A stretch of 64,000 bases of DNA from assembly GCA_001938485.1 (NCBI GenBank), contig MQRK01238124.1, positions 5,376 to 69,375 on the forward strand. The letters are read 5' to 3'. Both the position numbers and the translations under genes were made by a program. Positions 19,274 through 60,530 of this stretch are shown piece after piece. The notes beneath the pieces were generated by a model that had not been told where the DNA came from, did no database searches, and was given only the letters and a program-made list of their open reading frames with translations. Every line of letters begins with the position of its first letter. The first letter of the stretch is position 1. This stretch comes from Girardia tigrina. Taxonomy: Eukaryota.

Positions 19274-20609
19274 TGTTACATGTTAAATTTATTTCTTAAA
19301 TGAAATATTTAACATGCAAAAATATAGATAATTATTTGTTTAAATAATATCTATTTTCAAAGTATTGTTAGTGAAAAATAAATTTTATAGATTTGTGATT
19401 CGTTGTTACAAGCTATCCGGGCAATGATAAGCGATTTAAAAATTATACTCGATCATTTGGAGAAATTTAATGGAAACGGCAGTTTTGAAATTTGGAAGAA
19501 AAAGTTCAAGATGATTATGAAAATCCAGGGGATTTTGGATCCGGCCCCATATCTTCCATTTTTGTTGACTGATGTTCCTTTAAATATATACATGGAATTG
19601 GATGAAAAGAAACAGAGCAACTGTGATGAAGTACTGCAAATCTTGGACAATTCATTCGGATTAACCAGACGATCTGCGTACAGCCAACTGATTAATTTGA
19701 AATATTACGAAGGACAAGACTTGCAGCGGATGTCACAAAATTTGATCAACAAAAATTCTTAAGTATCATTGATTGTGGACCCTCTCGATTTGCAATATGG
19801 AAACTAATCAAAGCTGAGGATGACAAGTCGATTGTTACAGAGTTTTCAAATTTGTTCTGCGAGCGTGGATCTCCAAAGGAGTTGATTATTGACAATTATA
19901 CGACATTTCATTCAACCGAATTCAGCAAGTTGATGGAAAAGTGGAATGTACATGTCCTATACCGCGCTATTAATCGACCAAATTGCATCGAAATAATAGA
20001 GAGAAATCATAAGACAATCAAGAGAATTGCGTCTCGATCGAATATCAGTATCATGGAAGCATTATGGTGGTATAACAATACACCATCCGACGGAAAGAAT
20101 ACACCTCGTTCAGTACTNNNNNNNNNNNNNNNNNNNNNNNNNNNNNNNNNNNNNNNNNNNNNNNNNNNNNNNNNNNNNNNNNNNNNNNNNNNNNNNNNNN
20201 NNNNNNNNNNNNNNNNNNNNNNNNNNNNNNNNNNNNNNNNNNNNNNNNNNNNNNNNNNNNNNNNNNNNNNNNNNNNNNNNNNNNNNNNNNNNNNNNNNNN
20301 NNNNNNNNNNNNNNNNNNNNNNNNNNNNNNNNNNNNNNNNNNNNNNNNNNNNNNNNNNNNNNNNNNNNNNNNNNNNNNNNNNNNNNNNNNNNNNNNNNNN
20401 NNNNNNNNNNNNNNNNNNNNNNNNNNNNNNNNNNNNNNNNNNNNNNNNNNNNNNNNNNNNNNNNNNNNNNNNNNNNNNNNNNNNNNNNNATTTCTTAAAT
20501 GAAATATTTAACATGAAAAAATATAGATAATTATTTGTTTAAATAATATCTATTTTCAAAGTATTGTTAGTGAAAAATAAATTTTATAGATTTGTGATTC
20601 GTTGTTACG
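19274..20609 (+). mobile_element. Internally deleted short-LTR retrotransposon (gag N-terminus joined to integrase core)
   Basis: 137-bp 5' LTR 19274-19410, repeated at 20490-20609; gag ATG 19424; integrase LAADVT..DCGPSRF..DNY..ERNHKTIKR from ~19717. Confidence 0.9.
19411..19422 (+). promoter_or_regulatory. Non-canonical primer-binding site complementary to tRNA-Lys(UUU) nt 1-12
   Basis: AGCTATCCGGGC immediately after the LTR terminal CA; reverse complement GCCCGGATAGCT. Confidence 0.7.
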
Positions 20610-22433: not shown

Positions 22434-23089
22434 CTTTAATAAATAATGCAATTTTTCCACATTTATATATCACTTTACCATTTTTGCTAATATTCCATTG
22501 TTTGCTTTCCCATTTGCCATCAGATATTTTTCACGGGGCAGCCAATGGCAGTCAATGGAAAAATAAAATTTAATAAATCAAATAATTTTCTAAATTAAAA
22601 TACAATTTTTTTGAAGCTTGTAAATTATTTAAGATTTAATTTGGCTGTGAAACTTTAAATAAAACGAGAAATTATAAATAAATTGTTTGTAATACAACTG
22701 AAAAATGAGTCAAAGTGGTTGAAACAATTTATTGTAATTCAAGAAATTACCAATTATTTAATATTTCAACAATTTAATTTTCCTTATTTTGAACTTCACT
22801 CTATTAATATTTTATTGGCAAATATAACCTATCAACCATTCAATACTCTGAGACTTTCGGTGACTTGGATATTTCAAAACTGTTTGGTGTGATGTAAGGA
22901 ATCAAATATGTTGTTCAGCCTTTTTGAAGACTCTTTTTGTGACTCTATTAGATTGTTTCAAAAGTAATGCAGGTTTTTGAACCTAAACTGTAAAAAATGC
23001 AACTCTGCACAGAATAAACTTTAATAATCGAAATAAAAACCATCAGAATCAATACATTTTTGCCAATGAGAAACAAGTTTATTGATGCT

Positions 23090-23285
23090 CCTAGTTTTGG
23101 ATGCAATGAAAGCGTTAAAGGCGTCTTTGGCGTCGTCTTGGTTTTTGAACATTTTTCCTGGAGGAAGTTGTCCAGATGCTTGAAAAAATGTTAGTCGGTG
23201 GGCGAGAGGTCCGGTGAGTAGGGTGGATGAGGCAGAGTTTGGTAGCCAAATTCGTTTAGCTTCTGTAAGGTCGGTTTTGGATTAG
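23090..23285 (-). mobile_element. Mariner C-terminal fragment
   Basis: TLPHPPYSPDLSPTD*HFFKHLDNFL. Confidence 0.88.
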
Positions 23286-23694
23286 CTTTCAATACACAAA
23301 CTGTTTTCGATTTATCTGAGAGGAAACTTTGAACTTTAGATGTGACAGAGACTACTTTATAGAACAATAAGTAGTAAGTTTCTATTTTCCTCAATCGTGT
23401 TTTACCAATCTTTTGTTTAATATCTTATATTATCCAGCTCATAGTAAACAGAACCATCTAATGTTATACACTTCTACAATATCATTTCTGCTGGGTTAAA
23501 TCCAATGGTAATTCTAGATAATTACATCATGCTATATAAAAATTCAATATTCCTTTCGACTAACCTTATCTACACACTACGCTCTATCATTATATGCAAA
23601 AATTAGCATTTGCGTACCCTGTGAGACACTTTGTATTTGTATATGTGTACTATGTCTTTAAATATTAAGTAATAGAAATTAATATTGATTTTTA

Positions 23695-26808: not shown

Positions 26809-29800
26809 TTAGTATTTATTAGGTTTCACCCAGACTAATTGATAGTCACAATACATTTTACCCTTTGTACTGCCCTCTATCTCATTGTCACTTTTATGGT
26901 TTACGGGTTTCATACATTTATAACTGTATATCATCCAACTCGGTGATTCTTTGTTCTCCGACGGCGTATTGTTGTACCACCATTCTGCTTCTGCAATTGC
27001 AATGTCTGATCTCGCTGCAATTCTTTTGATCGTCCTATGGTTTCTTTCAACAATCCCGTTCCCACCAGGTCGATTGCTCGCTAGATAAATTAACTCTACT
27101 CCCCATCGATTGCAAACCTCAACAAACTCCTTTGAGTAAAAAGTGGTGTAATTGTCTACTAACAACTTTCGTCACCAATTTCTTTCCAAATTGCAAGTCT
27201 GGATGATCCACAATTGATTAAGCTTAAATACTTCCTGTCATTGTATTTTGTCACATCGATTGCCAATCTATACAAATTCTCCCTTACTGACACGCAACCG
27301 TGATTCAATTTTACCGGTGCGGGATCAATTGACTGGCATTTTTGAAATTTTAAAATCATGTTCGTGATATCTTTATCCGTTACTTGATTTTTTTCAATCC
27401 TACAGAGAAATTTCATTCGTTTCGCTCTCAAATTGCATTTCTTATGAAGGTTATCTAATCTCTCAATTTCACTTGTCGTGGCCCCGCAGCATACGTTTTT
27501 AGTTAATGCCTTCGATATCATTGTTGTAGTGTACCCACTACTTCAAACACTATAGTGTCGCATATTGTGTTTGTGTATATTGAAATTGTTATATTTATGT
27601 ATTTGTCATGTTATTGCTTTGTTGTTTGTGCTTTGATTGTTGACGCCACTGTTCGGGGGCAGTGTGAGTGTGTGGCCGCGACACATTTTTGGTGCAGAGC
27701 GAATCACCTTGTGTTTTTGTTTTCTGTTTTCCCAATGATTAGAATGATTGGTTGATTTGAGGTGGATATTTTGTAATTCTCTTCGAAAATTGCGACAGAG
27801 CAAGACGTTTGACTTTGATTTTTGTTGTGCAATTTGTCAGTAAAAGTAAAAATGTAAAAGTACATTATTATTTTTGTTAACAATAATTTAATAATAAAAT
27901 CAATAATGGATATAAATTGCAATTGGATTTATTATTAAATACAACTCAAGCGATCGGCTGCAACCAAAAAACTCACCGACCACAACTGTATCGACATTCT
28001 CAATCATCTCTCAACAACACCAAACAGCTCTCTCTCACCACCGACTCTATTTCACCACCGACGGCAAATCGTTCCTCACGTCACAAGAACTCGAAAAAGA
28101 AATTCTCTAAGAATTGAAGTTCTCTATCTTTTTCGTTATTAAAAGAATTGCCTTGTGCAATAACACTCCCAAGAAGACAACTCAGACAATCTCAATAAAC
28201 GACAAATTATATTATTCAAGTCCAATCGTCATTTTTCAAGTTAAAAGACCAAAAATTATTATCCGGTTACTGACTTGTATGCGTTATTCGTTATAATTTT
28301 TTTTGTAATTAAATATTATTTCCATTCCCGGATTTGTTATTTCGCTTATTCTATCATATAAAAGTAGCCTCAGGTTCACCTTATCAGAACTTTAGGTTAC
28401 TTTTATACTCGTCACCTCATCCACTTTATTCAAACTGCTCGCTACAAACTCTATCTTTATCATTATGTTAAAATCATCATAAATTTACTTAATGATTGAT
28501 AACCACCGTCTGATAAGCAATTCTGACAAGGCGCTCGGGTTAAACCTAGATTTACTACTGATTTAATGTCAAACTTTATCGTGATGTCCGTCATTCCCTA
28601 TTTCGCGCACAAATTAAGCCCTTTCAGGACCACCTCCAGCTTAGCAATATTTATATGCCTTGAATCGTCTTTTTTCCTCAACCATGACTCGTTTTCGATA
28701 ATTTTACCATTAACTTCAAGTAATACACCCATAGCTATTGAGCTTGCATCACACCACAAAGTGCCCAATTTACAATCGCCGATGCTCCACGTGCCACGAC
28801 ATGTGTCATTTTCTTCTACGTTTTCCAAAATCCATTTTACCTTCTCAACCACAGATTTGTCCACCGACGAATCCCAATCCCCCACCTAAGTTCGTTTGAG
28901 GAATGAAAACGCCAACCGTAACCATAACGCAATGGGGTAAATGCCAGTGAGTTGCCCACACAGAGAATAAAGCTCTCACCGCAAAATCGATTGGGATAAG
29001 TCTTTGACCCGTATTCGGTTCGATCGGTTCCAGAGGATGCTCCCGTCAATGTTTTTTAAATCCACTCCGAGAACTCTTACTTTTCTGACATTGTTTACGC
29101 GCTCGGGCTGTTTACATTCTAACCCAAATTTCTTGAACAAACATCTCACTTCATCCGCATTAACCTTGGACTCATCTACAAAAATATCATCAACGTAGGA
29201 ACCAGTGGCAGCATTAATCGTTTGATCGGACGACAAGACTTTTATCACAATTTCCTTCATGATGGTAGGGGCTGTATTTAGACCGAATCCCATCCGTGTT
29301 AATGCGAACTTTTTCCGTTGATAATACATGACTGAAACCGCCACTTGGCGGGATCAACATGGATTTGTATGTATGCATCAGATAAGTCCAAAATTGCAAA
29401 ACTGTCACTCTTCCTTTTCCACTCACGTAACTTTCAACACAAACGTCCGAAGAACCACTGTAAACATCCATATATTTGTTCAATTCCATGAAATCGAACA
29501 CGGGTCTTATCATATCCTTAATAAACTGGGCTATACCATAAACTAGGATCAACCCCACTGCCGCGCCCATTTTCTTGTCGTCATACTCTATTAAGTACCC
29601 TATTTTCATCCATTTATTTAAAATATCAATCGTTGATTTGTCTTTTGGTTTTGACTCCTTCAATACGGATTTTCTCCACGGTAACTGATCGGAGACATCC
29701 AATTTCCAAACCCAAGAAACTGTCCACACTTTGTCGAAACGAATCCTGAAATTATGTTTCTTCGTGCCTCCCTCTTCAGTAATTCTAGTCCCAGACAACT

Positions 29801-29915
29801 CGACACTTGGACCCGAACTACAAACATTTACTAGATCGGAACTGACCCCAAACTTTACATTTCCATTATGGAACACCATTCCTCTTAATTTCGCAATCAC
29901 ATCAACACCTAAGTT
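26809..29915 (-). mobile_element. Decayed LTR retrotransposon pol (PR-RT-RH-IN), same lineage as the elements at 19274 and 40004
   Basis: IRPVFDF.ELN, FALTRMGFGLNTAP, YVDD, WCDASS..HINIAKLE, LAIDVT, DNY, NGIVERNHRTIKR; foreign insert at ~27522-28400. Confidence 0.92.
27939..28120 (+). pseudogene. UFL1: UFL1 (E3 UFM1 ligase) N-terminal fragment
   Basis: KKLTDHNCIDILNHL and, after frameshift, LYFTTDGKSFLTSQELEKEIL*EL resemble UFL1 RLSERNCIEIVNKL...[22 protein letters not shown]. Confidence 0.7.
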
Positions 29916-30029
29916 TAACCAAAATTTGTATTGGTAACATTTTAAGATAGTAACAAAGTTAGTGGAGATTACGCATCATATTGCTCAGCATTTGATAACT
30001 GTAATATTAGCTCCCTAATCTCGAGGAAT

Positions 30030-32225: not shown

Positions 32226-32706
32226 TTAATTAATGTTTAAAACCGTTTTTTGGTCGATCTTCAGCTCCTGTGCGATGCTACGACTACTAACATGCCGGTC
32301 AAATTCGATCATTGCCGAGACTTTATCGACATTTTCAACGATAGGCCTGCCTGTGCGAGGTGCATCTTTAACATCAAAAATGCCTCCATGGAATCGACGA
32401 AACCAAAATTGCGTGTAATTAGCTGTTACAGTATTGGCACCATAAACACCATTCACAATAACAGCCGCCTGGCTTGCATTTTCCCCTTTATCGAATAAAA
32501 ACTGTAAAATGTAACGAATTTTTTCTTTGTTGACTTCCATTTTTAAAACCCTGTAACTCAGAACTGAATAGGAAAAAGCAAATTTTTTTTGTGAAATTAC
32601 TGTGAAATGTTACCTTGACAAAGAGCATAAATTTGAAATTGTTTGATCAATAAATAATGAATTAAAATAATGGATTAAAATAATGGATTACTTTTTCCCC
32701 AACCTA
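32226..32706 (-). mobile_element. Mariner 5' end with TIR and HTH domains
   Basis: MEVNKEKIRYILQF..WFRRF..D.PRTGRP..IAQEL; TIR TA-TTAGGTTGGGGAAAAAGTAATCC. Confidence 0.93.
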
Positions 32707-33420: not shown

Positions 33421-36151
33421 AACCATAGTGTTATGTTCTTCTGCTTTCGTGTATTCTTATATATTATTTTCTGTTCTTTAATTATTTTCATGAATTTCTA
33501 TACTCTAGAGGACCAAGTATGTTTTTTTCTTTAGTGTGTTTATTAGTTTAATCACTAATATAAGAAAAATCGATAAAATCAATGGTTTTCTCATTATGGA
33601 TACCTTCATTCATAACGAAAATTCTTGTTTATTATGGAAACGTGGAAAAAAACTCTTGAAAATAGTTTATTGTTCTCATTTATATTTATTGTTGAAAGAA
33701 TCTTCTGATAATCTGAAAGTTGGATGAACAGTACAATTAAATAATATTAATAAAACGAATAACCAACAAACATAAAATTCCACCTTTAGTTGGATGCGTC
33801 CAAAATTTATCTTTTCATCAATTAATAATAATAATAATGTTTTAAAACTATTTTACAGGAATCATACACTAATTTGTGAACAGAATTTAATCGAAAATCT
33901 TTTATTTTATGAACTTAAATTTTTATTTGATAATTTTTGGTTTTAATTTCAAGGATATTTCTGGCAGAACTTCGCTTAGATTTTCCCATTCCTCCGCATA
34001 TATTTCCGAATTCAACATTTGGTTTTCTAAATTATTTTTATGTCAAACATAACATTTTATATATTATAATTATTTTAAAAACAAAATTAAATTATTATCT
34101 TAAGACAAATTAATGTACGTGGTGCGATCAATAATTACCCTTTCTCTCAAATAAACTAATTTCAACAACGGTCATTATTATAACACAAGCTTAACGTATG
34201 TAGGCATCATTTTTCAACATCTAGTGCCTGTTAGGCTCCACACGCTTCCGTCTACGAATAAGAAACTCAATTTTTTTAATATTCTTGGTTGCATGTTGTA
34301 AAGAAATCCTCCACAGCAACCTTCAAATCTTCTTTGGATCAAAACTTGATGCATCCCAATTCCTTTTTTAGATGTCTGAAAAAAATTAGTAGCATTGACA
34401 TTGTCTTCGATAATGTTGGATTCTAGATTAGATTTCATCTATGGTAACTAATCATTGGTTAGGATCTTAGTTGCTTAAATATTCTTTCTCTCTTCCGCTG
34501 AATCCACTAAACGTTCTACAACTTCAACTCCGAATACTTCTCTTTTTACAAATCTTTGAACTTTATCATTCGTATCAAATTCTACCTCTTTAACGTTTTT
34601 AATATTATCTTTCACTATACCTATAATATCTGTTACTCTACTTTAACTATAGATACCTATATTTTTGGAGTCTTATGTATTATTTAATTTATTTCCCAGA
34701 CTAGCTCTGCTTTTGTCTATTCTGTTATATTCTTATATATTCTTTTCTGGTTTTTAATTATTTCAATTAATTTAAATAATCTAGAGGACACACTTTTTAG
34801 AATGTGGAGGCTCTGTCATTTGGGTGCTCTTTCTCCATTACCGATTCTTCATATTCTTCATCAGTTTTCCCTAGAAATTTTCTATTATCTCCTCTTCTCC
34901 TGCCTTTTCTATCTCTATATTGCCGTTGACTGTAACCCCCTCCTCGGTAATTGTTATTCGTTGATCTTTGTTGGTTTCTTCTTTCGTATAATCTTGTCTA
35001 ACATTTTGTAATGTCTCTTGTATTTTGTACAGTAAAAAACGCAACTGAGTAACAAACACAATAATCAGTTAAATTTTGCATAATATAGTAAGTACATAGA
35101 TGAATCTCAATTTCAACGAAAAATTGCAAAGGATAAAATCTAAAGACAACATATGTAAGTTAATAAGAAATAATTATTTCCATAATAGGTCAATAAGAAA
35201 TATATTTGCAACAATCAACTTTTAGCTTTTTCACCAGGTAAGATTTTAGTTTTCAGATTTATGTAGACCTTCTTGATCAATTTATCATAATTCAACACCT
35301 TCAACTAGACAGTAATCAAATATTGGTTGGAGGACAGTGCTTTTCAGCAATTTACTAAACTTTTTATTAATATTTTTTATTACCATTTTTGATATACTCG
35401 CCGTGTTGTTGTCTGTTCGGGTGAAAATTTGCCATTGATTTTCAAATATCTTCCATTTTAGCTAGAGCTTTGAAATTTTGAACACAACTCAGAAAAACAT
35501 GACAATACATCCGATAACTAAGCCGAATTACTGGTTCAGTTTCGATTAATGTTTGTTTTTTTTACAAACCAATGAAACTACTTTTTATTTGTGGGTAGAT
35601 AATTCTTTTTGATAAATTTTATATTATTTACATATAATTTCCAGTTTTTTTTGCATTTAGTATTTTTAAAATATTTATTATGGAAAAAAAATTTTGTAAA
35701 ATTTTACTGATTAAATTGGTTTGAGAAAAATAAAATATTTAAAAGTCAAAATAAAAATTTTTTTTGAGAAAAAAGAAAAATAGTTAGTTCGAGAAAAAAT
35801 AATTTTGTATTTGGTAATATTTGTGACAGTTATTAACAATAATATTATTCGAATTCCAATCAACTCTGTCAATATTCAGAAATAAATAATCGATTGCGAA
35901 ATTTCACCCATAAAAAGACAGTAATAATATAGTAATCAGTAAACGATATAAACGTGGTAATATAAAATGATCTTTTTATACACGTTATTATTTATAGATT
36001 TTTTATGAAAGTTTAATTTAATATACAGGTTAGCCAGTAATCCACACCTCATTTTTGATTTGTTTCAGAGGAAACTTCATTTAGGATGTGATTGAAACTA
36101 TGATGAGTTAGTTAAAAATTTTGATTCGCTAAATTATGTATAATCTTTTTA

Positions 36152-36736
36152 ATTATAAATTTTATCAAAAAATTCACATATTATATCAAACAAAAATCAG
36201 AGTTTAAAATTTAAAAAAGCTTACGTTAAATAAAGCCGATATATTTTAATAGATAAATAATCAGTAAAAGTTTTTAAAATAAGAAATTTAAAATAAATAA
36301 TAAACAACATTAAATTTATAATAAAAGTCTACTACAAAATTATTTTTAAAGAAAATAAAATTAGGTTAAATAGTTTTACAAAATAATTTGAAAGAAATTA
36401 GAGCTTAGCCAAATTAAATTTAATAATTTTATTTGTAATTATAACATATTTTATCTATAAATTTTAATAATAAAAGGTTGAATGGAATAAAAATATCAAA
36501 AAATGATTTGTGTACATGCTGATAATGAAAACTGATAATGAAAAATTTATAAATTATAAATTTGCATTATAAATTTAATGTTGTTTATTATTTATTTTAA
36601 ATTTCTTATTTTAAAAACTTTTACTGATTATTTATCTATTAAAATATATCGGCTTTATTTAACGTAAGCTTTTTTAAATTTTAAACTCTGATTTTTGTTT
36701 GATATAATATGTGAATTTTTTGATAAAATTTATAAT
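36152..36736. repeat. Long inverted repeat, 171-bp arms with 243-bp spacer
   Basis: 36152-36322 is the reverse complement of 36566-36736, apparently without mismatch. Confidence 0.9.
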
Positions 36737-36794
36737 AAAATTTATCACATAAATAATAATTTCTATTTGTCATTTCCTAATTTTGTCGGATATA

Positions 36795-38018
36795 TTGGAT
36801 TGGCCAAAACGTCATTGCGTTTTTGAGTACGTCCTAATAAAAAGCTTGAAAATATAAAACGATGTGATAAAATTTAAATTCAATTATATATTCGGAAACC
36901 TTAATTTTCAGACTATGTTTATACAAAATATTAATTGATTTTGTTTTAATTTATTACTTTACCGTCAATTCGAAATGGAAAATCGAAATGTGCATATTCG
37001 TCATGTTTTGTTGCATTATTTTCGCAAAGGTTAAACCGCTGTGCAAGCTCATAAGAAGATATGCTTTGTATATGGTAGTGACTTCGACAGTGTCAATATT
37101 GGTTTTCTAAATTTCGTTCTGAAAAATTTCATCTGAAAGATGCACCACGCTCCGGTCGACCAGTTGAAGTTGATGGCGACAAAATAACAGCACTGATCAN
37201 NNNNNNNNNNNNNNNNNNNNNNNNNNNNNNNNNNNNNNNNNNNNNNNNNNNNNNNNNNNNNNNNNNNNNNNNNNNNNNNNNNNNNNNNNNNNNNNNNNNN
37301 NNNNNNNNNNNNNNNNNATTTGGTGAAACGTATAGACATTTGCGATTCCCTTTTGAAGCGAGAACAAAGTGATCCATTTTTGAAGCGCTTGATTACGGGT
37401 GACGAAAAATAGATTGTTTACAACAATGTGGAACGCGACGATCATGGTCAAAACGTGGTGAGCCTGCCAAAACGATCCCAAAAGCAGAAATTCACCAAAA
37501 GAAGGTTATGCTTTCCGTCTGATGGGATTTTAAGGGAATTGTGTGTTTTGAACTCCTTCCGAGGAATAAAACCATCAATTCAGACAGATATTGTGGTCAG
37601 CTGGAGAAATTGGCTCATTCAATTCAACAGGAACGTCCTGAATTGGCAAATCGAAAAGGAGTTGTAATTCATCATGATAACGGAAGACCGCATACAAGTT
37701 TGACCACTCGCCAGAAACTCTTATCACTGGGTTGGGAGGTTTGGCCGCACCCATCGGATTTTCACTTATTTACATCACTACAGAATTCCTTAAACAGAAA
37801 ACCATTCGCCAGTGGTGATGAAATCGTTCCTAGGCGGCTTTTTTTGCAGACAAAGGCAAAGGTTTTTATGAATCAGGAATAATGAAGCTACCGAAAAGGT
37901 GGAAGAAAGTGATTGAAAATAATGGACAGTATATCGTGTAAAAATATTTGTGCATCCATGTTATTTTTTGATAATAAATATTTTAGTAAAAAATGCAATG
38001 AATTTTTGGACAACCCAA
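36795..38018 (+). mobile_element. Full-length but inactivated mariner
   Basis: Both TIRs with TA TSD; MEN..HIRHV, ITGDEK*, HHDNGRPH; frameshifts; internal N gap. Confidence 0.95.
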
Positions 38019-38020
38019 TA

Positions 38021-39940: not shown

Positions 39941-40003
39941 AAGCTTAAATTTTAAATAATTTTTAAAAAGTAAAAGAAAAAACCCTAATTTTCTAATTAT
40001 ATA

Positions 40004-41905
40004 TGTTGTGACGATCAATGAAGAAAAAGAATAATAACTCTAAAAATCTTTTGTTATTTGAAAATCACCCACAAATGGATTTCAGATTTAGAACAGTAAA
40101 ACAACTGTTATTTTTAATAATAAATGCGGATAAATATTCGTCAATTGCCCGCACAGAGAATATAACTCCCGCCGAGACATGAATTCCGATAAATCTTTAA
40201 TTCTGATTTGGTTTGCTCGTTTCCAGGTGATCTCCCCCTCAAAATATTTTACTTCTAAACCAAGAACCCTCACACTGTTGTTATAGTTTACTCTCTCTGG
40301 TGGTTTACATTCTAGTCCAAATTTACCAAACATCTGTCGCACGTCTTCTGCTTTAACTTTAGGTTCATCCACGAAAATGTCATCAATATACAAACCCGTG
40401 GTGGCATTAATATTCTGATCTGATGACAAAACCTTTCTCACGAGTTCTGCCAAAAGCCGAATCCCATACGAGTTAGAGCAAGCTTTTTACCGTTAATGAT
40501 GCATAACTGGAAGCGCCACAAAGCTGGATCAACACAAATTTGCATATATGCTTTTGAAAAATCCATTATTGCGAATTCGTTACTTTTTCTCCTCTACTCG
40601 CGTAATTTTCACGGGCATACATCAAAGATCTGCTGTAAATGTCAATGTATTTGTTTACTTCTCTGAAATCAAAAATTGGTCTGATTTTTTCTTTGTTCAC
40701 CTGAACGATACCGTAAATAGGAATTGCTCCCACTGATTTACCCATCTGCCTCTCATTGTACTCGAACAAATAACCCCGTTTCACCCACTCTTCCAAAATA
40801 TCCATTGTTAGTCTATCTTTTGATTTTGAATCTTTCAATCGCATCTGTCTGTTCGATAAATATTCCGGTGCGTTGGACTTCCAATCTCAGTAGACTGCCC
40901 ACTCTCTGTCGAACTGGATCCTGAAGTTATGTTTTTCGATAACCACCTCCTCGAAACCCGCTTTTGCTGAATTATAACTCGTGCTGACACTGCAGAAATT
41001 TGATAATTCTGAATTAACTCCAAACTTTACGTACCTGTTACGAAGCACGATTCTCCTCAACTTCTCAATTGCTTCCATTCCCAACAACAAATCCAAACTC
41101 TCTAGCAATTCATTCATAACTATACAATCCAATCTTAACTCTTTTTAATCACAGATCATATCGATAATACAGGACCCCACCGAAATTTCTGTTCCATTGG
41201 CCAACATGAACTTGTCATCGCCCCATCTTATAGTAGATTCTTCCACTTTGCTCCTCCTGACGACCGATCGGGAGCAGCCAGTGTCCACCAGAGCCTGATC
41301 CATTTTCCCTTAACCATGCACTGAACCAATGGAAGTGCCTTTACTTCTGTCGAGAAGCCTCTGGCACTGACGACTTCTCGCTGGTGTTTTTTGCCCAACA
41401 GTTTCTGGCGATATGACCATTTTTATTGCATCTAAAACAAGTAATATCATTATTTCGAACTATAGGACTTTTACTGCGGTCGGTAACCCCGCTAAAAACG
41501 CCGCAATTTCTAAATTTTCAACCTTTCATCTAATAGATGAAATACTTTCGAAGGACTTCTCTGCTGTTCGTCTGAAAGCTTCATTAATATACTCAGGGCC
41601 GACCCACTTTAAACGAACGGAAATAGCACTGAAACGTCCTTCATTTGTTGCATCGAAGTCATCACTGTGAATTGTTTCTTCCATATTTCCCACGAATTGT
41701 CTCCGTTGAATTTATCGATACATTCGAGAATCAACTTGATGCTTGCCATTGCCAAGATAGCTTGTTGGGACGATTAATGAAGAAAAAGAATAATAACTCT
41801 AAAAATCTTTTATTATTTGAAAATCACTCACAAATGGATTTCAGATTTAGAACAGTAAAACAACTGTTACTTTTAATAATTAATAAATACGCTATACATA
41901 TTACA
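40004..41905 (-). mobile_element. Internally deleted short-LTR retrotransposon (gag-PR-RT)
   Basis: 143-bp 5' LTR 41763-41905, partial 3' LTR 40004-~40125, TSD ATATA; gag MASIKLILECIDKFNG; ALVDTGCSRS; IRPIFDFREVN; YIDD. Confidence 0.93.
41751..41762 (-). promoter_or_regulatory. Non-canonical primer-binding site complementary to a tRNA 5' end
   Basis: AGCTATCTTGGC right after the LTR CA; complement GCCAAGATAGCT has the tRNA nt 1-12 pattern N7-TAGCT. Confidence 0.65.
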
Positions 41906-42479
41906 ATATAAAAATACTGTAGAGAATATTTATTTTGTTTCTCAATTTTTTTTATTAGTTATGGCTTCCGCATTTAGCAATATTGGTGTTCGTAATTGTA
42001 GGGAACCCTAGATATAATGATTTACAAGTAATTCTCTTCTAACAATTAATAAAGCTAGTAAAAATAATTTGGAAATCATTTCTGTTTATCCAAATCTAGA
42101 AATAATAATATACTATATCTGCTTCAGTTGTAAATTTAACACATTGTTGATTGCCAATTTTACGCTGAGACTTTTATATAACCGGCTTTTATTTCGTAAT
42201 TCAATATGGAAGTGAAACAATATAAATAACCTTCAATAATCTTTTTTATAATAAAAGGGACACGTTTAAATACTATGAACAAAGCTTTTGCAGTATTCTT
42301 TGTTTACCTGGGTTTCATAAATTGAAATAGCTAATGCGAGTACAAACATGAGTTAACTTGTGATTGGTCAACAATGTTTAATTGTGAAAATCATGTAAAA
42401 TAAATAAGACAAATGAATTTTAGATCATACTATTATTTTGTTATTTTATTGTATCTTTTTATTTATAATAAAATTTTAC

Positions 42480-45400: not shown

Positions 45401-48400
45401 TTAACAGTTTTCATGTAGCAAAGGTAAGTAAAGATGTTTCACCTTAAATGAATAGGCAGAGGAACGTGTTTTATGTTACGAAATTTCAAAATATATTTCT
45501 AACTTTTACTCATATATTCCAGAGTTGCTCTGTATAAATAAGGTGATAGATTTTGGCTCGTGGAGCCCGATCCAAAATTACCAATGTTGTTGCTCCTCCA
45601 GTCTTTCTTTCTTTCTCGCAGTGTATTGTTGTCTATTTTAAATTACCTTAAATTCATTAATAAAATATTGTTTAAATTTTACAAAAAATATCAGTTTCAT
45701 CAACTATTTCGTCTTGAATAATTTCTTCAATGACATCCTCTAAAGTAATTAAACCGATCATTTGTCGATAGGGATCGCCGTCTTCTGTTGTTATTACAGT
45801 TTCTATAAAAGCTATATGAGCTTTTCCTGAAAAGTTACATGAAATAAAGTAATATAAACTTAATTATATATTAAAACAAAATGTATTATAAGCCTCATCC
45901 GTCTGGACGGATGACTGAGTATCGTGGAGACTACAATACCAGTATTGCAGTGCAGGGTAGTTATTCATAGACTCTGTATAGGGTAGAAACAATAAATAAA
46001 CAATAGAGCTTACTGACTTTCTAGCACGACTTTAGATGCAAGAATGCGAGCTTTCAGTGCACGTACACACTTCGATTTCCCAGTCAGAAAGGAACAGTCA
46101 TGATATTTCATACAGTGATTCTGTTGAGCTTTGGCTATGTAAACACATTTCGTTCAATAAGTAAAAGGACATCTAAATATACCCAGATCATTTGTATTAC
46201 CACAAAATGTATTAATCTTTTAACAACCGGTCTCGAATATAATTCTGACACAGATCAATTCTACTCTTACACCCTTCATAATCTCTCAAACATTAGATAT
46301 ACGAGTATGATTCCTTCTAATAAATATGTATAGATTGCTAATCAGAAAAAATGTAATTCAAAAATTAGCCTCCGTATTTGTTCTTTTGTTTCTTTCAAAA
46401 GAAATATGAGAATATCACTGTGAATAAATTGTCCCTATCTTAATACTTTTTCATTATAGTGAAAATTATATGGTGAAAGCTGTTTCAGGAAAATGCAATC
46501 TTAATATTAAAAATATCAATGTTCCCATTTTTCTAAGGCAAAGGTTGAGTTATCTTCACTTGTTGAAAAAGATATTCCTTCTTCATGTAGGGTATATTGA
46601 CATCAACGATTTAAGAATATATCTCCTCGTCAATATCTATTAATTTATCGATAGATGTTAAAAATCTTTTTTTTATCTAGTAAATGATTATGCAACCACT
46701 TTAGGGGCAGCTTCTTCCTCTTTTGGTATTATGTGTCTCCCCGACGAGAAAGTCAATAAAATCGGTGAGCGGATCAAACATGACAAGATAAAACAGAACA
46801 ATGACACAACAGAACATTTATTTATTTGTTCTTTATCTACTACACATATTAAGATTTATTAATTGATGTGAAAGAAACAAAGCTTCGACAAAGTCAATCT
46901 AAATCTTTTATCTATTTTTATTATATTTTTTTTGCCATACTTTCTTCCACTTTTGATTATCGAATGGAGCTGAAATTTCGCAATCTTATTAATTTCCGAT
47001 TACATTTTATATTTATGTAAGTTGTAACGAAAGTCAAAAACAATTTTTTTCCTAATGTCAGTAAAGTGCTTAAGATTAAAATAGTTTAAATGATTTGAAT
47101 GGCGGTTAAAATATTTGGTGCTGAAAAGTAAGTAATGCATGAATTGAAAGCAAGAAATGAAAATGTAACAGTCAACCTTTATGTACATAATGTTGTAAGG
47201 GTAGTGTTGATTACTCGACTCGGTAAGTTGAAGAAAGACATGTTGGAGGCTTGTGAACGTCTCACCTTGAATGACTGCATACAACCATTTGGGTCGTTCT
47301 TTATAGAGGCGGCAACTGTCTCTGTCGATATCTGTCCTAATCGTTGGATTGATTTTTTTAGAAATATGTTTTGGTCACGTTGATATTCATTAAATTGGAT
47401 TAAACATGTGAAAATTTGATGTCGATTTCTGCGGGACAAATTAATTAAATTAGTGAGCACCAAAGTTTACATAATTGAAAATGTTGGATCTTTAATGTAC
47501 TGTTTACGAACAGATATTTGATTCATTAATATGACCAACACCCCCCCTTTATATACTTCTGTTTTGTTTTTATTAATATTTTATATATCTTCAAATTCAT
47601 GAATTTAATGGTTAAATCAATTGTCAGTTCTCTTCCTGATGGAATTTTTTTATTATTTTGATGACTTTTTCACATTTTAATATTATAAAGTTCTTTGGTG
47701 AATAAAGATTTTCTATTTCCTATCCAACATTACAGAATTTACAATTAACGACATCAAAATACAAAAAGCTCCACCTTGTTTGAATTCGTTTAGTATTTCT
47801 GGTAATTTTACATCGTCGGGTACAATGAGAATTGGGTGATTGTAAAATTTACAGATGGTGGACACAGGTGTATTATCTTGGGGGTCTATAAATAGTAAAT
47901 CTTTTATATTTAAAAGACCCTTAATATTATTTTTGTCTGTCTCGTAAATTGGTATTCTTGTAAATCCATTACATACAATTTCCTTCATTAAGTTATAATC
48001 TAACACGGCATTATTACTGATCATATATGCATGACTGATGGGGGTCATTACGTCTACTACCGTTTTATCTGTTAAGGTTAACGCACTCGATATTATTTCC
48101 ATCTCGTCTTTCTGGACCATACCAAACTTTTCCTAAAATAATGTCAAAATAATAACCATGTATAAATTATATTATTATTGATAATATTGTTTACATAATA
48201 TTAATATAATGAAAATTGAAATATATGTATATATATATATACATATATACAGGGAACCTCTAATAGACGGATACATTCGGGATGTCTATTAATGTCCAGT
48301 TTATAAAGGTGGCCGGATTTCTGAATTTCATGCCTACTTTTCAAAACATTGTATGTACATATTTTATAAAATATAAAAGTGCTCTATAATATAGAGTGAG

Positions 48401-52043: not shown

Positions 52044-55000
52044 CATTATCTTATTATCATATCAATATTATATCAATTTTTAGCCTTTGTCAATGAGTGA
52101 TGTTGATGAAGACTAAGTAAATTTGTCAGAAAGTAGTTCGGTAGAAACCGAATCAGATGAAGATGTATCGGATACTAGCGAAGAGGAACAAGTTATGGAA
52201 GTGGAAGGCAAAGATTGCAATGTGGGATTGTGCCCTATCCCTTGTTTTGAGTTATATCACACAAGAAAATATTATTAGGATACGTTTTTCATCTATTTGT
52301 AAATTACTTTAATTTAATACCATAGTTGTAATAATTTATAGGTAAATTTGTAATAAAAAGTAAACTATATAAAAAAATTAAGTTTTTGATTTGTTTTACC
52401 TAATTCTTATGACTTTCTAATTATAAAACAATAATAAAAAATACGATTTTTTTACCATTAAATTCTAAAATTTAGGTGCTTTAAGTGGTTAAATAAAATT
52501 CATTTTTTTCTCGTCCAATAAAAAAATAATAATGTAAACATTTGATATAATTATTCTTCACAATAATGATACAATAAAAATTAATATATATTCATTTCAT
52601 TTTACATAATAACCAGCAAAAAATTTTTATACTACAATAATAAAATCAGAGATCAGAATAATCACCATTTGATACTGTGGTTGTTGTGACATGAGTTGTC
52701 TTAAGATCAGAAAAACAACAAATTGAGTAACTTCCGATACGCTAATGGTATCTGAATGTCGGATGAGTTATTTTTGAAATTATTTATTGTTTTTCTTTGA
52801 AAAATTGTTGAATTTTAAATAATAAATTGCCTTATTAGAATGATAAATGTCATTTTTAAAAATAAAAAAGGTTATTAGCGGAGGTATATTATTTGGCGTG
52901 TGTATGTACTTCTGGGTATGTTCATTTCTATACCCTTTCCAAAATATACTGGCTTTCCAAAATTTAGTGAACCCAACTATAATATATACACTCGATTTTG
53001 TTTCGTTGTGCTTGTATGTTTGTAATTATTATTTTATAATATAAATTCTCTAATTAAATGTTAAGTTGCCCTGTAAAAATGAAAATTGGTTTAGTACGAA
53101 ATATAGGGTACTTACGATATGTATATTAGGGGACGCTTATTTTTCACGGGACACCCACTCATTTAGTTACATCTGTCACAGAAGCTATTCCAAGAAAAAT
53201 TTATCTTAGTTTCACAACATTTAAAGGTCAATTCCAGCTTCACACCATATTCTGAAATGCCTTTGTTTTTATACTATTAACCTCAAGTAAATTAACTAGT
53301 AATTTAAACACAGAAAATTACATCAGAATACATAAATTTCGTAATAGGAGTGATACGCTTCTACATTACCAACTCTTTTAACACTAGTCTTTAATGTAGT
53401 GTGTATTGATGCGGACGCGTAACTTTTGTATGCATATTTAACAGTTGAAAGGTCAAAGGGAAAAGAGATTGACTAATATTTATTATTTTTAGCAAAGTAA
53501 ATTCTAATTTTCCCTTCTGTTGTCTCCCATCGAGACAGGTCCTATACATTTACATGTGTTTAAATCTTCATATGAGCTAATGGGTGAATATCCAAAGAAA
53601 TCAAGGTAGTTAATCCATTACAGGCCTGTCCAGAAAGTCTTGGCCGATTTATAGACAAGTGAAAGATAAGCATTTATTGTTATTTTCATCATCATCTTTA
53701 ATATATTCAAAGTATTGTCCATTGTGAGCTACGCACTCCTCCCACCGTTCTGGGAGTTTTCTAATTCTTTTGGTGACGAAACTTCGAGGTTTCTCTTCAA
53801 TCCAACGTTCCAACACTACTTGAACTTCCTCCGAGGACGAAAGTTATAATTTCGTCCTCGGAGGGCGGTTTTCATTGTGGAGAATATATAAAAATAGGAG
53901 GGAGCGAGGTCAGGTGAGTATAGTGTATGGGGCAATACACTGAACCCGATATCCTGCAGCTTATTTACCGTTTTGTTGGCTGTGTGGGGTCTGGCGTTAT
54001 CGTGAAGGTAAGTAATTTGTTGAGTTCCTCATCCAATAAGCCGCTTCCGCTTTTGTTGTATTGCAACAACAAGACGATTCAGCTGTTGACAGTAGGTATC
54101 CACAGTAATTGTCTGTCCATGAGGGAGAACTTCCATTAGCAATACAGCTTTGCAGTCCCAAAAAACTGAAATCATGTACTTTCTGAGTGTAAGCACACGA
54201 CGAACTTCAACGCCAAGAACGATGATGTTGCGAGTCTCCATTGTCCCAATATATCCAGGATTTATCCAAGGTTACCAGTTGTTCAAAAAAATCAAAAGCC
54301 GATTGCTTTACTAACAGCTCGTTGCATATTCTTTCTCTACTAGCCATTTGTTCAGGGGACAGTAGATGTTGGATCCATCGATTACACAGGTACCTATTCT
54401 CCATCTGAATGAGATGATCCCGAACTGTCTCCGGGGAAATTGCCAACTCAAGTGCTATCGAGCGACATGTGCCGTATTTGTAAAAATCCAGCTATAGCAA
54501 TATAGCGTCATCAATGTTCATTAACGGCCTTCCAGAGCGCTGTAGGTCTTCCACATTAAAATCGCCGTTTTTAAACGGTTTTACCCATCGACGGCAAGTG
54601 CTCTCACTAACAGGACCACTTCCAAGTGCTGCATTCATGAATATGATAAAAAAAGCTGATGATTTAAAGAAAAGAATATGATAATTTCTTTTTTCCCTTT
54701 GATTTGCTTTAATGGGGAAAAAATAATTTCAATAAAATATGTTCAATTTTCGTCAGAATATAATAATTTCTTTCTCCAAATTTTTAATTTTCGTTAACCC
54801 TTTCGCAGCTGCTGGGACACATATGTCCCAGTGAATGTTTCAAAAGGCTGTTGGGACATATATGACCCATCATAAAAGACGAATGGGATATATTTGTCCC
54901 AACCTCCCCAGCCCNCCCCCTGAATAAATTTCCAAAAAAAACTTTTAAATAATAAATTTCAGACCGGAATAAACATTATATATTTAACAAAAATTATCTA

Positions 55001-57144
55001 TAACTTAAAACGGAAAGCCGCTGCGAAAGGGTTAAACAGATTTCAATACAATACAATTCGAACACGAATTCCTATATTAAAATTTGTCTGGCGATAACTT
55101 GGCATAATACTAATGAATTTGAAATTGTGATTGATTTATTGATCACAATTTCAAATTCATAATATTGCTTATGGCAATATTGCAGAATTTATTGTTGCCA
55201 AATTATCGTTACAGGCATCAAACTAATTAAATAAAAGATAAAAATAAATCATAAAAAATAAATAATGATTGTTACAATAAAAGGAACAATGTTATTAACA
55301 AAAAAAATGTTGGGACTGACAACAAAAAAATATACATATGTACAATACACGAATATGTAGGACATCTGTAATACTCACTTAAAAAAATATACAAACTAAC
55401 GATCAATTCCAACTCCAGTAAAGTATACCAATGGGCTATACAAATTTGTTAACTGATATTTTGAAATTAGTTTCCTACAATAGGAAAAATTGATTATTTT
55501 TTAATTATATTTAACAAAATCATTCACATATGTATATGTTATGTATACTAGATACTTATAGAAAACCATCGGTCAAAACTTTCTCGACAGACCTGTATTT
55601 ATGTATGAGTAGGAAATTACTATGGAATCTTCGCACACTAGAAATTAACCGGAAATATGGCTTGTTTGACAACTATCATAATCACTATCCCTAACCAAAC
55701 TTCCATCGAAACTTAAGTAATGGCTTTCTTCTTTCACTACAAGCTAAGCTTACTGAAAAGTAAAATTTTAGAGGAGCAAGTTATTCTACTGCTGGAGTTG
55801 TCATGTATAGACAAATGCTGGTATGTCCACATGTCTGAAAAAACACGTCACAACAAGGACTGAGACCAATATTCAAGAATAAATATGGAAATCTAGAAAA
55901 AATAAATCAAGCGTTATCTGAAATCGTAGCAGAAAGAACGTCATCGTAAAAAGGTCCGAAACATCTCCTTGAGGAGTTTCTTATGTCTCAGTGGTAAAAA
56001 GAGCGTCAAAGAATAATTATGAATGGTTAACAAAGTTTTGATAAATAGACAAGAAAAGTTAGAAACAAAAGAAGAAAACGAGAGGATGTGATTTTAGAGA
56101 ACGCGCTCACACATAACAATGTAATTGTAATAAACTTTCTTTTTGTTTTATTTTGAGCTCTTAATTGAAAGAGTAATTGTTATTAAACAAAAAAACAATA
56201 TTATTAAAAATTCAATAGACGTACTTTACCTGTTGCTTGATTATTTGTTTCAATTGTTCTTTATTATACGGTTGATTAATTTCCTTTCCGACTAGAAAAT
56301 CTAAAATTTTCCCCAATGGATATGATAGAATAAACGTCAAACAGACACAAGTAATCGTTATCCCTATCGTATAATAACTGAAGACCAACCCATATCTGGC
56401 TCCGAAAGCTTGAGGTATAAGTTCTCCGAAAATAACAATTCCCACAGTGGCGATACTGATGACAACGATAGGATTGTCGAAGACGAATTTCAAGAGTATT
56501 GTCAGAGTGCTGTTTGCCAATACATTAGTAAACAATATCGAACACAACAAAATGTTTCCATGTTTTCGTATCGGGTAAATCCGTTTTGAATATTTCTTTT
56601 CAATTGCATTACCAGCCTCAATAAAAAATTTAAGCATTCCTGGCTGGAGGGTCAATAAACCAATATTCGTTGCACTACAAAACGCGGATAAAAAAGAAAA
56701 GAAAACGCAAGCTATTATAATCAGCCAAATATGTGTCACATATGAATCGTACGCTACTACACTGGTCAATACACTTGTACCTTGATGATGCCAATGACCG
56801 GCACAAAATAAACAGAAATACAACATCGATGTGCTATTGATTTCGTTGATCGTAAATTCCGACTTAAATGATAAAATTGGTCGTAATTGTATGACGCTTG
56901 TAGCTTTGGTAAAATTGTCCAGACATAGATCATTGGTCAGTGGTGTATTCAGGGTAAGGAACCCTTCGGAACAAGTATCGATCTCATTGCCGAATAACGT
57001 TAATGTCGTTTCTTTACCATTCGGTAAAAGTAAAATGTCGTTTTCTCGGTTTACAGTGTCCGTGTTAACATTTATCCCAATTAAAATTGCCGATTCATAA
57101 CTCGCTAATAAACTCCAAATCATTAATGCCAATAATAAATTCAT
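42480..57144 (-). CDS. CNNM: CNNM/cyclin M family metal (Mg2+) transporter, multi-exon
   Basis: Exons 57144-56230, 48132-47775, 45826-45683, 45632-45504 (or 45510), 42768-42681, 42637-42480, all GT-AG and phase-compatible. Domains: signal peptide, DUF21 (GNILLCSIL, IFGELIPQA), CBS pair (VMTP, GFTRIPIY, ITLEDVIEEII), CNBH (LILQGKV.V). Terminal exons (~42000-42330) unresolved. Confidence 0.93.
43300..43943 (+). mobile_element. Gypsy 3' end with purine tract and family-A LTR (43523-43943)
   Basis: DGRTLIRNVEWLKPFK pol tail, GAGGGTGA, then TGTGAAGAATA...TTCCTAATA. Confidence 0.65.
44494..44844 (+). mobile_element. Non-autonomous Helitron
   Basis: 3' GC hairpin GGCCGCGAAGCGGGCC then CTAG|T; 5' CTATTATTTATAATAAAAG followed by CACT/CTGC short repeats. 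Confidence 0.75.
45683..45826 (-). CDS. CNNM: CNNM exon 3
   Basis: GKAHIAF..GDPY..IGLITLEDVIEEIIQDEIVDETD; not in the ORF track. Confidence 0.92.
47775..48132 (-). CDS. CNNM: CNNM exon 2 (CBS domains)
   Basis: TTTTAG|GAAAAG acceptor; EMEIISSALTL..VMTP..LNEFKQG. Confidence 0.93.
48250..50557 (-). mobile_element. Tigger/pogo element (decayed) in CNNM intron 1
   Basis: RRELTLAEK HTH, LYKW..R..NLPI, FNMDETGL, AWMT, IQTFKSHYRK; imperfect CAG..GAAC(C/T)TCT TIRs, TA TSD. Confidence 0.93.
51769..52488 (+). mobile_element. Internally deleted piggyBac
   Basis: TTAA-CCACTTAA...TTAAGTGG-TTAA; acidic N-terminus joined to cysteine-rich tail DCNVGLCPIPCFELYH; internal (TA)n. Confidence 0.88.
53621..55595 (-). 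mobile_element. Decayed mariner with nested MITE
   Basis: ~30-bp TIRs CAGGCCTGTCCAGAAAGT/ACTTTCTCGACAGACCTG, TA TSD; LVTLDKSW, HDNARPH, YSPDLAPS. Confidence 0.92.
54798..55031. mobile_element. piggyBac-type MITE
   Basis: Perfect TIR CCCTTTCGCAGC, TTAA TSD, three GGGAC..ATGTCCC-like palindromic subterminal repeats. Confidence 0.93.
56230..57144 (-). CDS. CNNM: CNNM exon 1 (signal peptide, extracellular and DUF21 domains)
   Basis: 305 codons, donor CAG|GTAAAG. Confidence 0.93.
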
Positions 57145-57699
57145 AAAAAAAATAATTCGATAAAAATTGATTATATCTATATGCAAATATATACACACCT
57201 GTTTAAATTATACAGTGCTTTTCATTTAACAACAGCAGAATACGAAATTCTAACCTTAATAAAATGGATTGAATTTAATTATCCAAGTAAATAATAGTTG
57301 AAGGTCTTTTAACAATTGCATTTATAGTGTCATTCCCGATGATTTAGAGAATAGTCTCATTAATTAAAAGAATGTATATTAATTGAATCCACCTCACAAA
57401 AGTATAGCTAATCACAGATAGGAATAATCAAAATAATTTCATTTAATAAAAGAATGTCCAATGATTAAAAGAATTTTATATAGAAGCATATATACTGCAT
57501 GAAGAAATAACTTTACACACTAACAAATTAACGAATCATGTAGAACTTCGTGTTGAAATGTTTAAAAGCAATTTCATTTAATAAAAGAATAATTAAGATT
57601 AATTAATTAAAAAAATAATGAGTTATACACAAAATTTCTCCGATATCTCCAGTGCAGATGAAAATGTAGCACCAAATATTGAAGAAAGGTAAGGGTCTA

Positions 57700-58939: not shown

Positions 58940-60530
58940 ATTTCCACTCCTCGTCGTTGTGCGAATGGACAAATTCTTGTAGCCATTCAATTCGTCGTGG
59001 CTTTAAAGTGTTTCCCATTTTCAACATCGCTTGGTGAGGAGTAAGAAACTTTACAATCCGGGCCTTCGTATCTAATTCCTTCTTTCTGACATTTGTATGG
59101 ATCTTCCTTCATGAGTATTTCCTCCCCCACATTGAAAACTCAACGACTCCGCTTTTTTTCATCTTGTATTTGATAACTTTTAAATGTAATCATAGTTCCC
59201 CAGTTTCTTTCCAAAAAGTATTTCATATGGACTTATACCAACTACGCTCTGCTAAGTCATATTCAAAAAAAATTACACCTTTGGAAGTAAATCTTCCCAA
59301 TACAATTACGATTTCTGACGTTTTAAAATAATTGCCAACATATCTAAAACCGAAAGAATAGTACGCTCAGCTAATCCATTAGATTGATGCTGGTATGGAG
59401 AAGAAAATTATTTCTGAATGCCAAATTTTTGACACATATGTCTCAATTTGGTTCCTTCAAATGTTTTATCCCTGTCCGACAAGAAGGATATTGGTTTCCC
59501 ATACCGATATATCCAACCACTCAGAATTGCTCTAGTTATTGTCTTCTCTGCTTGACTTTTTAAGGCTATCAGGACGATGACTTTACTGAACCTGTCAATT
59601 AATATTAACTTGTATTTTTTGAATTCCATTTTATTTTCACCTTACATTTTTCGATACACATTTCATCTGTTGGTGAAAAAAACATCCATTAATCTCACAT
59701 TCGATGACAACAGTTTTGGAGACTCAATCTTCTTCAGAAATGCAACAGCCATTACTAATACTGATGCCCCCGAATCCCACAACATTTCTACTTCAATATA
59801 ATTACATCTCAATATACTCCACTATCTTCTGTCTAACTTCTGATATATCTTCTGTTTCATCTTCTTATTTCTATCTCTAGAGTTTATATCCTTAACTGAC
59901 GCAACCCAACCGAGGAGATAAGTACAATGGACTGCCTTGCATTTTTATACTTTATTCTTCATGACATTTTCATAATCTTTAACTTCAAAAGAAATCTTAC
60001 CGTCTTCAAAGTCTTCTGAATTTCCTTCTTCCTCTTAGATACATAACACTGGTTTGGCTGTTCGTTTGTGTCCATTTACTGATGGACACTCACGGAATCT
60101 GTGACCTTCTTTACCATAAATCAAGCTGCAGCAGTTCAATGGACAATCTTTTCTTCGATGTTTCTCCACAGAAAAAACATTGTCTTGGTTAGAGAGTTCA
60201 AATTCAATTGGCGGTTTACCCCACAACTTTTAACAAAATCTTTTTGCTTTTGTTTTCATCGATTAAGTTGCAAATTTCCGCTCTTCATTTAACTTTTCAA
60301 ATTGACCGCTTTGTATTCTTTTCTTCATATCTCTCTTAACTTAGGATGCATTATAATTTTGATAACCGTGATTCAGTATAGGCCTGGGTCATCTTTGAAA
60401 TGGTTTTTTTCTACGGTCGCATATATTGGATGACGTTGTTTTATTGAGTCAACCAGTTTGTTTTGGTGTTAAACTTTCCAAAGCTGTTACCGATTCTCGA
60501 CTTCTTTCATTTGGCATTTTTGGCTCCAAG
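58940..60530 (-). mobile_element. Deleted Ty3/Gypsy relic (gag zinc knuckles, protease, integrase; no RT seen)
   Basis: HRRKDCP/GHRFRECP, LWDSGA, LIDRFSK..SD..SPYQHQSNGLAERT. Confidence 0.85.

Follow-up and report, generated by a model that had tools for sequence, protein, structure and literature searches.

A putative primer-binding site for the 5' end of host tRNAs in a lineage of LTR retrotransposons, pointed to by a decayed copy in Girardia tigrina

Which primer would start reverse transcription in an LTR retrotransposon whose LTR is followed by 12 bases that look like the complement of a tRNA 5' end? This question is raised by a decayed element in a 64,000 bp stretch of Girardia tigrina DNA (contig MQRK01238124.1), which was analyzed at its full length and is called the window below. 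Rich in AT and eukaryote-like in character, the window is interrupted by assembly gaps and harbours remnants of transposons. These include the element in question, E2, and two further remnants of the same lineage, E1 and E3 (Table 1).

E2 is the remnant of an LTR retrotransposon located on the minus strand at 41905–40004. It has direct terminal repeats with TG...CA ends and a short flanking duplication, its 3' LTR being truncated. The two LTRs differ at 5 of 117 aligned columns. The left end of the 5' LTR was set by its TG and the TATAT flank, the corresponding part being absent from the 3' LTR. The opposite end is fixed, with zero spacer before the 12-mer, because the 3' LTR copy stops with ...CACAACA at 40004, where unrelated sequence begins. 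Read along the minus strand, the junction is ...TCCCAACA/AGCTATCTTGGC/A/ATG, and this order of LTR, 12-mer, a single A and the gag start is the one originally predicted. The gag remnant terminates in a zinc-knuckle-like stretch, and the element lacks RNase H, integrase and a polypurine tract. In total, the aligned gag and pol sequences fall into six frame pieces with 6 stops, and 5 of 37 pol residues invariant across 32 relatives are altered, which corresponds to about 6% decay per site. E2 is a dead copy.

Table 1. Coordinates of the retrotransposon features in the window
Feature	Position	Strand	Remarks
E2 5' LTR	41763..41905	-	143 bp, TG...CA; right end set by LTR pair
E2 putative primer-binding site AGCTATCTTGGC	41751..41762	-	adjoins LTR; complements tRNA nt 1-12 type sequence
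E2 spacer A (41750) and gag ATG (from 41749)	41747..41750	-	
E2 gag, broken	41347..41749	-	3 frame pieces, 2 stops, internal loss; blastx against P0005
E2 protease and reverse transcriptase, broken	40127..41288	-	3 frame pieces, 4 stops
E2 3' LTR	40004..40125	-	first ~22 bases gone; fused directly to reverse transcriptase sequence
Target-site duplication TATAT, upstream copy	41906..41910	-	AT-rich context weakens evidence
Target-site duplication TATAT, downstream copy	39999..40003	-	
E1 5' LTR	19274..19410	+	137 bp
E1 putative primer-binding site AGCTATCCGGGC	19411..19422	+	exact complement of tRNA-Lys(UUU) nt 1-12
E1 gag N-terminal part fused to integrase remnant	19424..20112	+	protease, reverse transcriptase, RNase H absent
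E1 3' LTR	20490..20609	+	beyond assembly gap
E3, third remnant of the lineage	26821..29918	-	reverse transcriptase, DUF7047, RNase H, integrase

The junction of E1 (...TGTTACA/AGCTATCCGGGC/A/ATG) has the same layout. As predicted, the LTRs of the two elements are not alignable (of 1000 shuffles, 88 score as high in global and 83 in local alignment) and their gag proteins are only moderately similar (18 of the first 46 residues identical), while the 13-nt leaders are equal in length and the 12-mers agree at 10 of 12 positions, differing at +8 and +9. The junction pattern CAAGCTATCYKGGC has exactly two matches without mismatch in the window, each at an LTR end. With up to three mismatches nine matches were found, compared with a chance mean of 4.45, and 5 of 100 shuffles reach nine. 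A 10/12 match is expected by chance 0.6 times per window and with a probability of 5e-6 at one given position. The match alone being expected this often, the significance of the site therefore comes from its placement at the LTR end. The other 10/12 matches in the window, at 6963 (+), 43990 (-) and 59345 (-), were taken as chance; none of them lies at an LTR end, the one at 6963 being judged by its short context only.

E1 has atypical flanks: a 14-nt duplication (19260–19273 and 20612–20625) is found instead of a 5-bp one, with two extra bases at the right, and its 3' LTR ends with CG. Possible causes are an assembly effect near the gap, an atypical insertion event or a local duplication of older date. 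The gag of E1 runs straight into integrase, and the database protein P0055 is a gag-protease-integrase without reverse transcriptase; it is possible that E1-like and P0055-like forms are non-autonomous. In a single predicted fold of 19351–19470, made without shuffles, the LTR end of E1 pairs around the gag start and the site lies mostly in a loop; the predicted fold of E2 differs from this arrangement. In E3, gag, LTR and primer site were looked for and none was found.

To place the site in a wider context, genome_contigs was scanned with an alignment of pol proteins, and nine loci (L001–L009) were revealed. A gag start is present in seven of them, and in each of the seven the LTR end is followed by a 12-mer of the AGCTA type; in L002 and L003 the 5' region is absent. 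The seven loci represent five distinct elements, L006–L008 being tandem copies of one. When these five are taken together with E1 and E2, positions +1 to +5 are identical in all seven elements, in agreement with the prediction that the stretch complementary to U8-A9-G10-C11-U12 of the tRNA 5' end is unchanged. Positions +10 to +12 are shared by six to seven elements, +7 to +9 are variable (3–5 of 7), and beyond the site (+13 to +21) conservation drops to 2–5 of 7. In the sequences compared, conservation stops at the position predicted to face tRNA nucleotide 1. No spacer separates LTR and 12-mer in all three elements with LTR pairs (E1, E2 and L007); for L007 this is confirmed because its 3' LTR ends with ...GACAACA and passes into unrelated sequence. 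In L001, L004, L005 and L009 the LTR end was deduced from a single LTR, that of L004 reading AA. The equal leader length, which is real for E1 and E2, does not extend to the lineage as a rule: in the five outside elements the first ATG follows the LTR end after 11, 16, 17, 23 and 56 nt.

Of note, the contigs of L001–L009 sit within five bacterial genome bins of genome_contigs, which looks like eukaryotic contamination. No relatives were found in plasmids. The copies L006–L008 lie in a tandemly repeated unit of 8159 bp that also carries tRNA-Ser(TGA) genes. In L007 (1164–1245, 2602–2624 and 7269–7350) the LTR starts directly after a flank that is found elsewhere 25 nt upstream of tRNA-Ser, hinting, in one contig only, at insertion upstream of tRNA genes.

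The site was also traced in gag proteins. In many cases it lies directly next to gag and is therefore translated in those predicted proteins whose start is placed early. We examined 73 gag proteins, excluding P0007, P0014 and P0045 (off-family) and P0077 (unrelated gag). A peptide compatible with read-through of the site was found in 9 of 22 long N-termini, compared with 0.42 expected; given codon degeneracy, this is a statement about compatibility, not about sequence. The proteins with read-through are scattered over the gag tree. Among the 13 of 22 long N-termini lacking the motif there are one near miss and two of another type, and the rest may start past the site. P0073 and P0075, which belong to a long-branch gag clade with P0028 and P0070–P0074, read LTFGAF before the start. 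This could be the trace of a canonical TGG-type site, as judged from the peptide, and if real it would help to polarise the change of primer end.

In the gag tree (a quick tree in which E2 occupies only 42% of columns; P0004, P0031, P0076 and the off-family proteins were left out and L009 was not included) E2 is the sister of P0005, and E2 and E1 fall in one gag subclade with SH-aLRT support of 99. Because of this common placement the site was inherited in both. The claim that E2 keeps it independently must therefore be abandoned: the site is an inherited trait of the lineage.

Which tRNAs do these sites correspond to? Comparisons were made with human and zebrafish tRNAs, used in place of those of the elements' own hosts, and complementarity was found in four elements. 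The sites of E1 and L004 are exact complements of nucleotides 1–12 of tRNA-Lys(UUU) (available parts of PMC12217144 for human and PMC4688932 for zebrafish), and the L006 site complements the start of human tRNA-Phe(GAA) without mismatch (as given in the accessible part of PMC10505166). The L005 site matches a Lys(CUU) probe (excerpt of PMC11417395) over 10 consecutive bases only. For L001, L009 and E2 (3 of 7) no matching start was found among the verified ones. Given AGCTA, the chance that the other seven bases match one named tRNA is 6e-5. Variation of the site among elements falls where tRNAs vary. These matches bear out the prediction of complementarity to a tRNA 5' end. An anticodon stem-loop site of the half-tRNA type known from copia and Ty5 was ruled out, the matches being to nucleotides 1–12 of Lys and Phe tRNAs.

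Based on these data, we propose that the lineage has its primer-binding site in the 12 bases that follow the 5' LTR, and that this site would pair with nucleotides 1–12 of host tRNA-Lys or tRNA-Phe, not with the 3' CCA. As a reading of sequence comparisons we give this a probability of about 0.78. One might suppose instead that the 12-mer is an auxiliary contact for the 5' strand of an uncut tRNA, which primes elsewhere from its freed 3' CCA in the bipartite manner of Ty3, the LTR end being set later. Bipartite sites with D-arm contacts are described for Ty3 and Ty1 in the available text of PMC5371799, and pairing to nucleotides 1–7 would release the tRNA 3' end. However, as had been predicted for E2, the canonical TGG site is absent from it, and it is likewise absent from the other six elements: in all seven the first TGG appears at +9 at the earliest or is missing within 30 nt. 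In addition, wherever an LTR pair exists (three elements), the site adjoins the LTR spacer-free, and it is U12 that lands there. We therefore hold this explanation to be improbable.

The length (12) and position of the site also resemble those of self-primed elements of the Tf1 type (accessible part of PMC4600332), in which case the site would pair with the 5' end of the transcript made from the element itself. This explanation is largely refuted, and we give it hardly any weight, since the best complement is no better than 8/12 in the E1 and E2 LTRs, even with G:U pairs allowed, and 8–9/12 anywhere in the loci, the complete elements L001 and L004 included in the search, while the sites match tRNA starts exactly. 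The proximity of the motif to the end of the LTR, and to the gag start in several elements, could in principle be that of a captured tRNA, a relic of a Pol III A-box or another cis signal (for integration, packaging or translation) with only an incidental match to tRNA. Such an origin is very unlikely: the match stops at nucleotide 12, an antisense A-box across the junction was found in none of the seven elements, ARAGORN and Rfam found no tRNA gene in the window, and the exact matches are to different tRNAs in different elements, whose sites vary only at positions that are variable between tRNAs.

If the site does bind the tRNA 5' end, the element RNA would displace the acceptor and D stems of the tRNA and pair with nucleotides 1–12. 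The tRNA would then be cut or trimmed after U12, leaving a 12-nt 5' fragment as the primer of reverse transcription. The cut is placed after U12 because this nucleotide would face the first base after the LTR, and only a 3'-OH there would start DNA at the LTR end. As regards the enzyme, our first choice, by analogy with Tf1 and at a little under even odds, is that the RNA duplex is cleaved by the RNase H that the element itself encodes. Tf1 self-primer cleavage reportedly requires RNase H. Four acidic RNase H positions, which we take to be catalytic, are invariant in the 32 pol proteins. It is also conceivable, at about one chance in three, that an existing 5' tRNA fragment is trimmed, while a cut by another host nuclease seems unlikely; the tRNA cut of Ty5 is credited to RNase P in the available part of PMC5371799. 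During plus-strand synthesis the primer would be copied as far as its first base. Copying of the tRNA primer into the plus strand is part of established retroelement replication. It would be due to this copying that the match stops exactly at nucleotide 1 and that the sites follow tRNA sequences.

Besides the general mechanism, the two deviating bases of E2 need an explanation. E2 descends from an ancestor of the Lys(UUU) type. Its 12-mer matches both the Lys(UUU) and the human Phe(GAA) complement at 10 of 12 positions. The predicted pairing with tRNA-Lys(UUU), with one G:U and one mismatch, holds. The label "Phe-like", on the other hand, cannot be kept, the 12-mer being two bases off from either tRNA and pairing better with Lys (-15.4 compared with -12.9 kcal/mol for Phe, and -19.6 kcal/mol for a perfect partner).

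In our judgement, which is not a computed posterior, the odds are slightly better than even that the two changes represent a switch to another host tRNA, one beginning with GCCAAGATAGCT; if this is true, a host tRNA gene beginning with GCCAAGATAGCTCA is expected. Both changes fall within +7 to +9, the positions that are also variable in the other six elements and between tRNAs, and the chance that two decay hits both land there is 0.7–1.4%. Moreover, Lys–Phe type switches occur elsewhere in the lineage. The alternative, to which we would assign somewhat less than an even chance, again by judgement, is that the E2 family is primed by tRNA-Lys(UUU), as its neighbours are, and that both differences are mutations acquired after insertion, which would leave the lineage mechanism unaffected. 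The gag of the sister P0005 reads TSYPG, which is compatible with a Lys site, and all four leaders visible in the subclade besides that of E2 (E1, P0003, P0005 and P0008) are Lys-compatible. E2 itself is visibly decayed, with a long branch (0.65 compared with 0.15) in addition to its 6 stops and ~6% decay, so that at 6–8% decay the probability of at least two changes in 12 bases is 0.13–0.16; both changes are from G/C to T in an AT-rich genome. Against this, the divergence between the LTRs (5/117) gives a probability of only 0.025 for at least two of 12, and CpG depletion is absent from the window (observed/expected 1.02).

To establish the identity of the lineage, the E3 stretch was used as a query, which retrieved 43 long relatives, and 32 pol proteins were aligned. 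The elements are ~3.8–4.2 kb long and encode a zinc-knuckle gag followed by protease, reverse transcriptase, DUF7047, RNase H and integrase. DUF7047, an RVT_3-type RNase H and the integrase core were detected by Pfam in all 32 pol proteins; in E3, DUF7047 is located at 28535–29314 (-). The RT_RNaseH models PF17917 and PF17919, which are a Pfam marker and not a formal criterion, matched none of the 32 at E ≤ 0.01. The order protease–reverse transcriptase–RNase H–integrase follows from the Pfam positions in the intact relative P0079, and the pieces in E2 and E3 agree with it. The reverse transcriptase is remote from solved ones (best E 2e-9). Among the Atlas clusters, the closest ones with DUF7047 are eukaryotic, and their members with a record are mostly from Arthropoda. 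The lineage may represent an unnamed deep lineage of LTR retrotransposons.

In its domain order the lineage resembles Ty3/gypsy (Metaviridae), with TG...CA LTRs, a gag zinc knuckle and protease–reverse transcriptase–RNase H–integrase, and it also shares the 5-bp duplication, seen in E2, and the polypurine tract, present in L001 and L007. It differs from Ty3/gypsy by lacking an RT_RNaseH match and having DUF7047 and the RVT_3-type RNase H instead. Assignment to Troyka/Kuafuorterviruses (Kuafuorterviridae), which are likewise divergent animal LTR retrotransposons formerly filed under Gypsy, was rejected. These have xADD, CG...CG ends, 3-bp duplications and a length of 5–6 kb, whereas E2 has TG...CA ends and a 5-bp duplication, YIDD/YVDD is found in translations of the window and the elements described here are ~4 kb long.

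The proposed priming can be compared with known systems. In half-tRNA priming, described for Drosophila copia, yeast Ty5 and plant Osser, Bryco, Gymco-II and Bianca in the accessible parts of PMC5371799 and PMC6317226, the primer is, as proposed here, the 5' part of a host tRNA that has gained a new 3' end through internal cleavage, the cleavage being suggested here by geometry. According to these parts of the sources, the cut falls in the anticodon stem-loop of tRNA-Met or tRNA-Ile, and the cases of the plant survey are all Ty1/copia. In contrast, the 3' end would here be nucleotide 12 in the D stem, with the primer paired throughout from nucleotide 1, and the lineage has matches to Lys and Phe tRNAs and a Ty3/gypsy-like domain order. 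Tf1/Sushi and Tj1 are similar in that their primer comes from a short segment at the 5' terminus of the RNA, which pairs beside the LTR end and needs cutting (available part of PMC4600332), but the partner here would be a host tRNA in trans, the element having no complement. With canonical priming by tRNA 3' ends (retroviruses, most Ty3/gypsy and Lys-primed Osvaldo) the lineage shares a site lying directly downstream from the 5' LTR, and tRNA-Lys primes some canonical elements (accessible part of PMC3286476); it differs by having no TGG start and in that the opposite tRNA end would be bound. Three primer types are listed in the available part of PMC6317226: a whole tRNA, a half tRNA cleaved within the anticodon stem and a self-primer. 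In kind, the priming proposed for the lineage comes closest to half-tRNA priming, and in geometry to Tf1; it fits none of the three exactly.

The rest of the window contains host genes encoding a CNNM domain (56212–57207, -), a CBS domain (47713–48132, -) and an NADPH-dependent FMN reductase (62775–63302, +). A remnant of another, conventional-looking retrotransposon with RVT_1 is located at 5735–5986 (-), and integrase-like text at 59408–59641 (-) is presumably also a conventional-looking retrotransposon remnant. Judging by translated motifs, we take 11160–11765, 37440–38020, 23021–23424, 32226–32609 and 53816–54728 to be mariner-like transposase remnants. A tandem array with a unit of ~47 bp (4586–5272) and two inverted arms of 184 bp with 97% complementarity (36148–36740) were also revealed.

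Among the matches listed in a literature search, from which subscription journals and Repbase Reports were largely outside, no site against tRNA nucleotides 1–12 was described, no paper named DUF7047 and no retrotransposon paper printed these sites. The string AGCTATCTTGGC occurred, among the matches listed, in two papers, both on other subjects, and four site strings are absent from 7 supplement files of PMC13524379. Annotation pipelines look for tRNA 3' ends only, as for example in the accessible methods of PMC13524379, and because of this the lineage would be scored as lacking a primer site.

E2 itself is minor, a single decayed instance; its value is that of a pointer to a lineage-wide site against tRNA nucleotides 1–12. 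We tentatively suggest that the lineage represents a fourth primer type and repeatedly switches its tRNA by means of three bases, E2 recording one such switch inside a Lys-primed clade. The model predicts a sharp RNA-DNA junction at tRNA nucleotide 12, which is directly sequenceable. If true, priming by a 5' fragment of 12 nt would assign a definite function to very short 5' pieces of tRNA and would link tRNA-fragment priming with duplex cleavage of the Tf1 type. Since 3' tRNA fragments block canonical primer sites (available part of PMC7515703), the primer site of the lineage would then also lie beyond the reach of these fragments, an escape that would follow from the tRNA end it binds.
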